From IMG/VR virus record IMGVR_UViG_646311923_000012: DNA of 64,000 nucleotides, one strand, 5' to 3'. The position numbers were made by a program. The DNA comes from a virus (Duplodnaviria; Heunggongvirae; Uroviricota; Caudoviricetes). Position 1 is the stretch's first letter. The number at the start of each line of letters is the position of its first letter. Shown piece by piece: positions 15,001 through 18,000 of this stretch.

Positions 15001-18000
15001 CCGCCCACCAGCTATAGTGGCGGCGGTCATGCTGTAAAGGCACGTGACCACATGTACGAATTAACTCTATCTCCAGCAGAGATTAAAGAGATCACGAAAT
15101 ACGAGCGATACACAAAACAGCAACACCAGTTAAGACTGCACGGCATCCCATTTGTAATCGGCCCTAAAAACGAACCCATAGTTCTCCGCAGGGATATTCC
15201 ACACGGTCTGACAACGATGCCAAAAACATCTGAACTGGTTTCTGCTGAACCCGATTTTGAGGCGCTGAACAATGGGAAGACCAAGAAAAAATAAAAAAGA
15301 TAATGTACTGCCACCGCGGGTTAGATCGAATGGTTACAGTTACGTGTGGAAACCCGAAGGAAGTACAAGAAGTATAGGGCTAGGAAGAGTGCGGAAAACC
15401 AGCGTAGCTAAAGTCTGGCAAAATTATGAACTGGAAAAAGCAAAACTCCACAACATAATGACCGTAGCTAAATTGTGGCACATGTTTATGGACTCCCCTG
15501 CATTTACAGAACTGGCCCCCCGAACCCAAAAAGATTATCGACAACATCAGAAGGCGTTGCTGATGGTATTCGGAAAAGTGCTTGCTGATAATGTCAAAAC
15601 TGAGCAGGTAAGAATTTTCATGGATAAACGAGGGCTTGAGAGCAAGACCCAGGCAAATCATGAACTGGCAAGCCTGAGTCGAGTATACGGGTGGGGATAT
15701 GAGCGTGGGTATGTGAAGAATAACCCATGCAAAGGAGTCAGAAAATTCTCTCTTAAAGCCCGCACTGTTTACATCACCGATGAACAGTATGCGGCGATAT
15801 ATGCGGAAGCAATTCCACAGTTACGCATTGCAATGGAGATTTCCTATCTCTGTGCGGCAAGACTCGGTGATGTGCTTGAGTTGAAATGGCAGGATATTAT
15901 GGATAAAGGGATCTACATTGAGCAAAACAAAACCGGCACCAAACAAATCAAGGAATGGTCACCGCGATTACGTACAGCGATCCAGTTAGCCCGAAATGTA
16001 TCTTCCTGTACATGCGAATATGTGATCAATACAACCAAAGGCGGGAAAGTCATAGCTAAAACGCTGAATAACTGGTGGAATCAGGCTAAACGCGCAGCCG
16101 AGCAAAAAGTTGGCGTTCCGTTCGGGTGCAATTTTCACGACATAAAAGCCAAGGGGATCTCAGATTACGAAGGCAGCAGTCGCGACAAACAAATTTTCAG
16201 CGGGCATAAAACAGAAAATCAGGTGTTGATTTACGATCGTAAAACAAAAATCACACCAACACTGGATTTGCCGCTCGTGGTTAGCAAGTAGACAATCCAG
16301 AAAAATTTCTGGCAAAAAGACTTGGTATACTAGCTATGAGCAACTTCCTAATACCTTGATTTTTCTTGGTGTTAAATTTGATTAACTTTTCAGCAATTTC
16401 ACGTATTGCACTGATTTTTATTTGTTTTTCTTCGGTCTTGAAAACCGGCGACCCGAAAGGGTTCCAGAGTTCGAATCTCTGCGCTTCCGCCAAATAATCA
16501 AGGGGTTACCAAATGGTAGCCCCTTTGCTTTTCTGGCTCTTGGTATAAACTTGGTATACCAATTGGTATATTTTTATTCGGATGATCTTGGTTCTTCCGG
16601 CCACTCAATATCAGGTGCAGTTGATGTATCAACACGGTTCAGCAACACCCGATACTTCTTCCAGGCTTCCAGCAACGAGTTTTCTTCCTCCGTTGCGATC
16701 TCCAGATCTACTGAAGAAGGCAACAGAAATAGATAATTAGTGCTTTATATTCAAAAGGTTAATAGCAAATTTGGCATGCTTTTTACTGTCTAGTAAACAG
16801 CATGCCTCTATCCATAAAATCAAACAGTTGCAATCTAATTTTGGAGAACGTTTTTTCTTCTCCCTTTTAGCAAATCGCTATAAAAAACAACAAATGGTAT
16901 AAAAATGAGCAATCCTAATCCATGCATGACGGACTGGAGAAAGTATTCACAAAAGTTAAAATCAACAGTCTGTTGATTTTGAGATATAACTCTCTTTTCT
17001 AATATTGACACCTTGGCTTTGCTGGTTGTTAAAATTAGCTTGTTGATTAGTAGTATGGATAGAACTTACTCTGTTATTTACTTCTAAAAATGGAATTTAT
17101 CAATGCTTCCTACATCGCAATTACGACCGACCGGGACATTCTGCTCCTATTCCGCTGAAACATCAGCAGGCATCAAAAGCGAAATCACACCAATTCAGAT
17201 AGAAGAAGCGCGGGCCAGTGGTCGTTTATATATCAAAGATTGTGATATTGAGTATCTGCCACAGTTACCAAACGAAATAACATCAGTTACAATCGAAAAC
17301 TGCAACAACCTGACAATCCTTACAGGATTGCCGGTTAATACACAAAACCTCTCCGTCATTAACTGTGAAAAATTACAAATCACAGACATACCATCGACAG
17401 TAAAAAATCTACATATTGAATTAACTGATTCACCATTTATACACATCATACCTGAAGGCATCGAATGCCTGACGGTTTGTCGCTGCCATATATCTGGAGT
17501 GCCAGAGAGCGTCCGCTACCTTGAGATAAAAGGTAGCGCCACAGACAGCATAAAAAATGTTCCAAACGGGTTATCATCTCTCAGCATCAATAGCTATAAC
17601 CCGGAGAATCAGGCCAGAATTGACAACCTGATATCACCGTCACTGCAGACGCTATCGCTGACTGGATGTAGCAATATTATACTGCCGGAGATACTTCCGG
17701 AGAGTGTGACATCGGTAACCATTCATGCGGAGCAGAAAACCACGTGGAACATCGGTGTTGAAGGGATGCCTGATGGGCTGGATCTTGATTTACAAAATGT
17801 ACTACTCTCTCCAGATGTAGTTAAAGCAAAAAACATCACCTTTCAGGGCAACGCTCTGGATGTGGCCTTACACTTTCGCGAGGGAGACATTGTCTATGGA
17901 CTATCTTCACCCAGAGAAAAACTTGTCAACAGCATTAAACTAGTTAACGACTTTTCCAAAAAAGATATTATAACTCAGAATACGTTAACAAACGCAGTAT

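Follow-up and report, generated by a model that had tools for sequence, protein, structure and literature searches.

The 64,000-nucleotide stretch of DNA analysed here (the window) comes from IMG/VR virus record IMGVR_UViG_646311923_000012, assigned to the Caudoviricetes. The subject of this report is a locus in that window at which the integrase gene of one lambdoid prophage (A), a fragment of the tRNA gene serT and a set of short repeats meet a second lambdoid prophage (B). An excisionase-like gene and the integrase gene (int) of A (Table 1) both read toward the serT fragment, the orientation given for int in the original prediction, and 141 bp separate the end of int from the fragment. Positions 16433-16492 are base-for-base the 3' 60 nucleotides of serT of Escherichia coli K-12 (tRNA-Ser, anticodon UGA), the 3' piece of a tRNA-Ser(UGA) gene that had been recognized at the outset; the identity begins in the 5' half of the anticodon stem (serT position 29), runs to the CCA end and extends for 5 nucleotides more, to 16497. 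ARAGORN called no complete tRNA at this core, in keeping with the presence of only a fragment of the gene, and a second copy of the core is absent from the window. Beyond the core lie the predicted terminator, a stem-loop at 16500-16525 with a T-rich tail, and three tandem copies of the motif TTGGTATA, of which one further copy stands between int and the core.

Positions 16292-16585 thus comprise a P arm, a core and a P' arm in the internal P-core-P' order, and the explanation that best accounts for these features jointly, including a mechanism based on arm-type sites, is that they form a complete attachment (att) site of the attP type between two lambda-like prophages integrated in tandem at serT. 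This explanation is considered highly probable. The proposal of a tandem prophage junction is borne out by two comparisons with phage DNA outside the chromosome. In the free phage Evi, int, P arm, core and P' arm are contiguous and 92.3% identical to the window, and the homology ends exactly at window position 16585; homology to other genomes also stops at 16585, whatever cargo follows. Researchers further determined the attP of Sp4 (CP-933M), a prophage of E. coli O157:H7 Sakai, by sequencing of excised circles, and it reads cttgattatt / tggcgg...gacc / gaagaa (Asadulghani et al. 2009, PMC2669165). This published sequence is the reverse complement of window 16427-16503, that is, of the core with its immediate flanks, and the segment drawn in blue as the 'core' of Sp4 in Fig. 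S5 of the same paper (PMC2669165) matches the core of the window.

Related genomes supply the other junction types. The attB type is represented by K-12, in which serT is followed by its native terminator and yccA. Junctions of the P-core-B' (attR) type are found in O121 and Sakai, with int, the same 141-bp arm, the core, the native terminator and yccA, and junctions of the B-core-P' (attL) type in O45:H2, EH2252 and E. albertii, with an intact serT, a phage-type terminator, three TTGGTATA copies and prophage cargo. The internal P-core-P' arrangement is shared by the window, 21 other genomes among the matches listed and phage Evi. The core is invariant in all eight aligned att sites. The tRNA fragment therefore does recur at prophage boundaries, as in O121 RM8352, where P arm and core lie beside yccA at the integrase end of B, and the att copies that had been anticipated elsewhere include the one at a prophage tail end in EH2252 and O45:H2, where an intact serT precedes the same P' arm. 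Sp4 itself is the closest known system, with a 100% identical integrase (ECs_1055), the same core and the attP junction described above. It differs in that its P arm meets the native serT terminator and yccA, since Sp4 is annotated as the sole prophage at its locus, whereas the P arm in the window meets the P' arm of another prophage.

The ownership of the two arms can be read from their single-nucleotide polymorphisms (SNPs). A SNP at 16527, in the P' arm, follows the right-hand cargo and the P-arm SNPs follow int, and the left arm is therefore that of A and the right arm that of B. Prophage B had been placed just beyond the repeats; it does adjoin the junction, but the terminator and the three tandem copies belong to its P' arm, so that B begins at the core. 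For annotation, the value of this result is that the limits of the att module are fixed at 16292-16585 and that the terminator and triple repeat are assigned to prophage B.

A tandem-lysogen junction of this kind is ordinary and was documented before: both its site (serT) and the prophage type involved (Sp4) have been published. Two or three tandem lambdoid prophages at serT (serT_1-3) were reported from closed genomes of Shiga toxin-producing E. coli (STEC) of clonal complex 119 (CC119) (Nakamura et al. 2023, PMC10132054), and tandem prophage sites were listed for O121 (PMC8767318). The window represents the internal junction of such an array. It differs from the reported ones in lineage (CC119 in that study), and in those papers the sites were catalogued while the junction sequence was not dissected.

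Table 1. Positions of the features at and around the junction of prophages A and B in the window.
Feature	Position	Strand	Remarks
Excisionase-like gene, prophage A	15052-15294	+	80 aa, DUF4224; overlaps the start of int
Integrase gene (int), prophage A	15272-16291	+	339 aa; intact lambda-type tyrosine recombinase
Integrase residue K292	codon about 16145-16147	+	Lys stands at the position of the second catalytic Arg (lambda R311)
P arm, prophage A	16292-16432		Integrase-proximal; found again beside int in the yccA-side junctions of O121 and Sakai
Arm-type site CTTGGTATA	16321-16329	+	104-111 bp before the core
IHF-consensus match (AATCAAGGTATTA)	16349-16361	-	Exact match to WATCAANNNNTTR
Weak arm-like copy CTTGGTGTT, doubtful	16365-16373	+	2 mismatches to the motif; 3 positions vary among variants
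Core, 65 bp	16433-16497	+	serT positions 29-88 plus 5 nt; block identical in attP, attB, attL and attR
IHF-consensus match (AATCAAGGGGTTA)	16496-16508	+	Start of the P' arm
P' arm, prophage B	16498-16585		The conserved att module ends at 16585
Intrinsic terminator, phage-borne	16500-16535	+	Stem-loop 16500-16525, 11-pair stem, T-rich tail
Three tandem arm-type sites CTTGGTATA, CTTGGTATA, ATTGGTATA	16539-16570	+	Spacing 11 and 12 bp; 42-73 bp past the core
Tail-fibre-assembly (tfa) remnant, first cargo of B	16586-16714	-	Pseudogene in O121, EH2252 and O45:H2
espK, type III effector, cargo of B	17103-18464	+	EspK WP_000938124.1, annotated in three genomes

Arm-type repeats and a lambda-like integrase

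The integrase of prophage A has a catalytic domain recognized by PF00589 (33.5 bits, with a cut-off of 27.1) and aligns with lambda Int over residues 1-319 (E 5.6e-20), with Y321 under Y342. Its N-terminal domain corresponds to the arm-binding domain of lambda Int, residues 1-60 aligning with lambda residues 1-64 (MGRRR..LPPNLYIRNNGYYCYRDPRTGKEFGLG) and conserved from residue 1 in the pattern MGRxR...LPP..V..NGY.Y...P; none of the Pfam arm-binding models fires on the protein. The 80-aa product of the upstream gene matches Pfam DUF4224 (E 8.9e-9) and PHROG 1266, 'excisionase' (E 1.9e-23), a family shared with sb29 of ST64B, and a search for a solved homologue of this DUF4224 protein found none.

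The TTGGTATA motif starts on the + strand at 16322, 16540, 16551 and 16563, the four copies around the core having been correctly counted in the original prediction, and a reverse-strand copy at 16555 arises because TTGGTATACCAA is palindromic. Six copies occur in the 64 kb against 1.05 expected, six being reached in 0 of 100 shuffles, and four same-strand copies of any one 8-mer within the 294-bp att region arose in a proportion of 5e-5 of 20,000 shuffles. The repeats are distinct from the core sequence and are found on both arms, the arrangement that characterizes a heterobivalent integrase, and the arms contain no other repeated motif. The copies do surround the core, but only the one at 16321 is solid on the arm of A. 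Most IMG/VR integrase loci end at the int stop codon, and about a dozen yielded P-arm variants; 49 of the 141 P-arm positions vary among 16 other sequences, while TGGTATA (16323-16329) is invariant in all P-arm variants and both its flanks vary. Phage Chris1 carries a direct copy at the same distance from its core as the 16321 site, and the three tandem copies are kept 3' of serT in nine further species and a Salmonella contig in which terminator and flanks differ. A literature search for TTGGTATA yielded nothing relevant and no experiment on these arms.

The core is also flanked by sequences resembling sites for integration host factor (IHF). The consensus WATCAANNNNTTR has five matches in the 64 kb against 2.46 expected, and the two exact ones flanking the core are matches to a consensus, not proof of binding. 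A broader IHF consensus is WATCARNNNNTTR. All three positions that vary at 16349-16361 fall on degenerate positions of this broader consensus. On the other side of the core, the native sequence downstream of serT (AATAAGATAAGGG) lacks an IHF-consensus match and the phage version creates an exact one. The phage terminator overlapping this match resembles the native serT terminator, from which it has diverged by stem changes that compensate each other; the stem arms are GGGGTTACC/GGTAGCCCC versus GGGGTTAGC/GCTAACCCC. As attP carries the part of the tRNA from anticodon stem to CCA, and as an intact serT precedes the P' arm in O45:H2, EH2252 and E. albertii, the phage restores the tRNA 3' end, and its terminator replaces that of serT after integration. 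An Rfam match to MicX over the terminator is attributed to chance.

The same layout extends through the relatives of the integrase. Ten of them (Int 42-79% identical) carry two to four tandem copies of a phage-specific 8-mer just past the tRNA 3' end. In 8 of the 10 the copies also lie beyond a terminator, and Chris1 and 606R7 show no terminator in sequence. Where a free-phage attP is available, the other arm has one inverted and/or one direct further copy. The tandem motif is TTGGTATA in Chris1 (Int identity 60%, target serU), TTGGAATA in both 606R7 (56%, serU) and a K. oxytoca prophage (76%, serT), TTAGAATA in BUCT708 (55%, serT), TGAGAAAA in ST64B and KpF5 (50%, serU), ATGGCGAA in mEp390 (42%, a tRNA-Leu) and ATATTAGGAA in ZF40 (45%, a tRNA-Leu). 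Two relatives with 76-78% identical integrases have no recognizable att site adjoining int. In the nine further species mentioned above, serT is combined with a terminator that has diverged and with three TTGGTATA copies; in Dryocola and Pluralibacter these copies adjoin a 63-66% identical integrase, and in Cedecea and Enterobacter only integrase remnants remain beside them. The repeats co-vary with the Int N-terminal sequence throughout the family, and together with the lambda-like N-terminal domain this lends good support to the prediction that they are integrase arm sites; judged from these sequence comparisons, the TTGGTATA motif is very probably the integrase's grip on the arms of its site. 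With the arm motif and its relatives, att sites and the ends of prophages carrying integrases of this clade could be predicted throughout the Enterobacterales.

The integrase would then be heterobivalent in the manner of lambda Int, its N-terminal domain occupying the single CTTGGTATA site of the P arm and the three of the P' arm, and its C-terminal domains binding and cutting inside the identity block. For tRNA-targeting integrases, strand exchange is most likely at the anticodon loop. Cleavage here would probably also occur there, with the stem providing natural inverted binding sites, and the remainder of the 65-bp identity block would serve in rebuilding the tRNA. IHF would bend the DNA at the two consensus sites flanking the core, and Int would bridge arm and core sites. 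After integration, serT would receive a new terminator from the P' arm, and integration of a further phage with this specificity into the occupied site would generate the internal P-core-P'. Any two of the three resulting sites would be a potential substrate, so that A, B or A+B might be released as circles.

The parallel with lambda attP (P1, P2 / core / P'1-P'3, with IHF sites H1, H2 and H' and with Int and Xis) comprises several features. Int is homologous over its full length, arm-binding domain included, one arm has three tandem repeats where the other has isolated copies, the core lies between IHF-consensus sites, and an excisionase-like gene lies upstream of int. The differences are that Int identity is only about 25-30%, with a Lys at the position of lambda Arg311; that the core of the window lies in a tRNA gene whose 3' end and terminator are restored by the phage; that the triple cluster is next to int in lambda and on the int-distal arm in the window; and that the excisionase-like gene belongs to DUF4224 and is not lambda Xis.

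The DUF4224 protein, or another accessory factor, might instead bind the tandem TTGGTATA cluster to control directionality, in which case the site would still be an attP. Lambda Xis is established to bind closely spaced direct repeats as well, and the DUF4224 gene adjoins int in all relatives and diverges along with it, so that co-variation of the motif does not discriminate this protein from Int. Lambda Xis sites, however, are confined to one arm, whereas the same 8-mer here occupies both arms, as a triple cluster and as isolated copies, which is the Int pattern of lambda P1/P2 versus P'1-P'3; moreover, the Int N-terminal domain is clearly homologous to the lambda arm-binding domain and needs a target, and the arms offer no other repeated motif. 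Binding of the cluster by an accessory factor is therefore judged unlikely. Still less likely is an origin of the junction by homologous recombination or rearrangement among similar lambdoid prophages, with A and B as pieces of a reshuffled array. STEC prophages are mosaic, prophage A of O121 RM8352 combines a serT-type integrase end with a tail end at torT, and A and B have their closest relatives in different strains (Sakai Sp4 and O121 for A, O45:H2 for B). Yet the junction near the core is base-for-base the attP obtained from Sp4 circles and is collinear over its full length with the attP of Evi, the arm SNPs segregate cleanly on either side of the core, and EH2252 combines a canonical serT-side outer junction with the same internal junction, the yccA-side one being seen in O121 and Sakai; homologous recombination inside the prophage bodies, for its part, would neither create nor alter the site. 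That the repeats are a product of chance, or serve the espK cargo as promoter or regulatory sequence with no part in recombination, is scarcely credible: AT-rich repeats are common upstream of horizontally acquired genes and weak promoter-like matches occur at 16935-17006, but the repeats stay with the core whatever the cargo (espK, an EspV remnant and, in other genera, an integrase), and the copy-number and shuffle statistics exclude chance.

Several observations weigh against a complete attP-type site operating by way of arm-type repeats. Both outer junctions and the integrase of B lie beyond the 64-kb window. The P arm has one solid copy of the motif as opposed to a proximal inverted plus a distal direct copy in relatives, and no counterpart of the proximal inverted copy is recognizable in the window. 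The motif co-varies with the excisionase-like gene as well as with the Int N-terminal sequence, and its co-variation alone therefore does not tell which protein binds the repeats. In the Sakai study, Sp4 circles were detected only after mitomycin C, mapping was confined to the core with no description of arm sites, and the Sp4 excisionase was judged probably non-functional (Asadulghani et al. 2009, PMC2669165). Among the related arrays, the integrase of B is truncated by an insertion sequence (IS) of the IS3 family in O45:H2 FWSEC0003, and in O121 the tail end of A (NleG, EspJ) abuts torT, at a torS/torT-type site whose att-like hairpin is a different one; such arrays are therefore frequently fixed in position.

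A lysine at the Arg-II position and the orientation of attP

Alignment with lambda Int points to R197, K220, H289, K292, H312 and Y321 as the catalytic residues of the integrase. This is a departure from the canonical R-K-H-R-H pentad, Lys292 standing under lambda R311 with no gap from the FH anchor. The motif H-D-[ILV]-K-A-K is present in 116 of 116 full-length homologues of at least 55% identity, and the mEp390 and ZF40 integrases (42-45% identity) read the same. A 2021 survey called the RKHRH pentad strictly preserved, exceptions at Arg-I aside, and a literature search for Lys-for-Arg in tyrosine recombinases found no paper. The deviation is a variant and not a ground for exclusion from the lambda-type integrases, to which the protein is assigned on the basis of homology and the in-vivo activity of the identical Sp4 Int.

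ST64B (serU), Chris1, mEp390, ZF40 and KpF5 belong to the same integrase clade (42-60% identity), carry the DUF4224/PHROG 1266 gene and share the attP layout relative to the tRNA, with a tandem cluster, a tRNA 3' fragment and further copies. They differ in their targets (serU, a tRNA-Leu) and arm motifs, and in the orientation of int, which in this group abuts the tandem cluster with the tRNA on the opposite strand. The latter arrangement, which is also that of lambda, was observed in 10 of 10 relatives, whereas in the Sp4/Evi/window type the entire attP is inverted relative to int. The serT of E. coli is itself inverted relative to yccA in comparison with Salmonella, and the two inversions together therefore keep the orientation of the prophage in the chromosome. 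A causal link between the serT inversion and the flip of attP is speculation.

Taken together, these features suggest, tentatively and with rather more doubt than confidence, a twofold novelty. A large and demonstrably active clade of lambda-related integrases (Sp4, ST64B, Chris1, mEp390, ZF40 and more than 100 clusters across the Enterobacterales) would be naturally R-K-H-K-H-Y, an exception to the 'strictly preserved' pentad, and the serT phages of E. coli would have inverted their whole attP relative to int while keeping their chromosomal orientation, both points possibly being undescribed. The arm-site motif, its family-wide pattern, the Lys at the Arg-II position and the flipped attP were not found in the literature. 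Of these, the Lys-for-Arg replacement is the one item possibly of interest to recombinase specialists and the only lead that may be worth following up.

The Salmonella sequences deserve mention in their own right. In contig OR851037 of Salmonella Kentucky (2952-2990), an intact serT is accompanied by a diverged terminator and by three TTGGTAYA copies spaced 11-12 bp apart, and the same layout was seen in nine other enterobacterial species. The 3' side of serT in Salmonella is presumably the serT-proximal edge of Salmonella pathogenicity island 5 (SPI-5; Ser tRNA, pipA, pipB and so on), the contig ending before pipA. The repeats at this edge are apparently a fossil P' arm left by a phage of the same family, and the arm motif could help to recognize other such remnants.

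Prophages A and B and the arrays of related strains

Positions 1-16532 of the window are 99.3% identical to the early region of Sp4 in O157:H7 Sakai, and prophage A is closest to Sakai Sp4 and O121. Prophage B is closest to O45:H2: it shares 99.8% identity with the serT prophage of O45:H2 and O103-type strains, and its orientation matches that of A. Among E. coli RefSeq genomes, none matched the window over its full length. The cargo past 16585 opens with the tfa remnant, which over about 100 bp is 97-98% identical to lambda tfa. Next come espK and a tail-fibre gene interrupted by an IS66-family element; the J, tail, head and terminase genes, on the minus strand, lie farther right. The cargo changes at the same point in other genomes, and effector genes (espK, EspV, TccP) are exchanged immediately outside the P' arm.

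Across related complete genomes, the full array reads hyaA, serT, A, junction, B, serT fragment, yccA. In EH2252, hyaA and serT are followed by EspV', a TccP-like gene, tail genes and so on to the int of A, then by the junction and by tfa', espK and the remainder of B. The integrase gene of B in O121 has the same length (1020 bp) and the same P arm. The O121 strain RM8352 (NZ_CP028110.1) has an array in the order yccA, B, junction, A, torT; at this array locus serT, hya, app, gfc and torS are absent, and the flanks keep their K-12 orientation. In O45:H2 FWSEC0003, the truncated B integrase is directly followed by the genes for tail fibre, Lom and J from a third prophage with orientation unchanged, and the serT array of O45:H2 has at least two members with one junction deleted. 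In-situ cos-to-cos packaging of an A/B hybrid was considered and judged unlikely because the head and terminase modules differ in the related prophages, being lambda-like for A and HK97/HNH-like for B.

Some further features of prophage B were recorded. The IS66-family element that splits its tail-fibre region (19196-21894) encodes a 523-aa transposase at 19226-20797 together with TnpB and TnpA; it is missing from the O121 counterpart and present in those of O45:H2 and EH2252. A partial Rfam match to IS009 (16620-16791, minus strand; 84 bits against a gathering score of 117) falls in the tfa remnant and the sequence upstream, and probably reflects conserved tfa sequence. Finally, prophage B carries three tRNA genes at 50951-51202 on the minus strand, a set that is usual downstream of Q in STEC lambdoid prophages: Arg-UCU, Arg-UCG and a tRNA with a CAU anticodon, which is called Met by ARAGORN and annotated as tRNA-Ile in related genomes.

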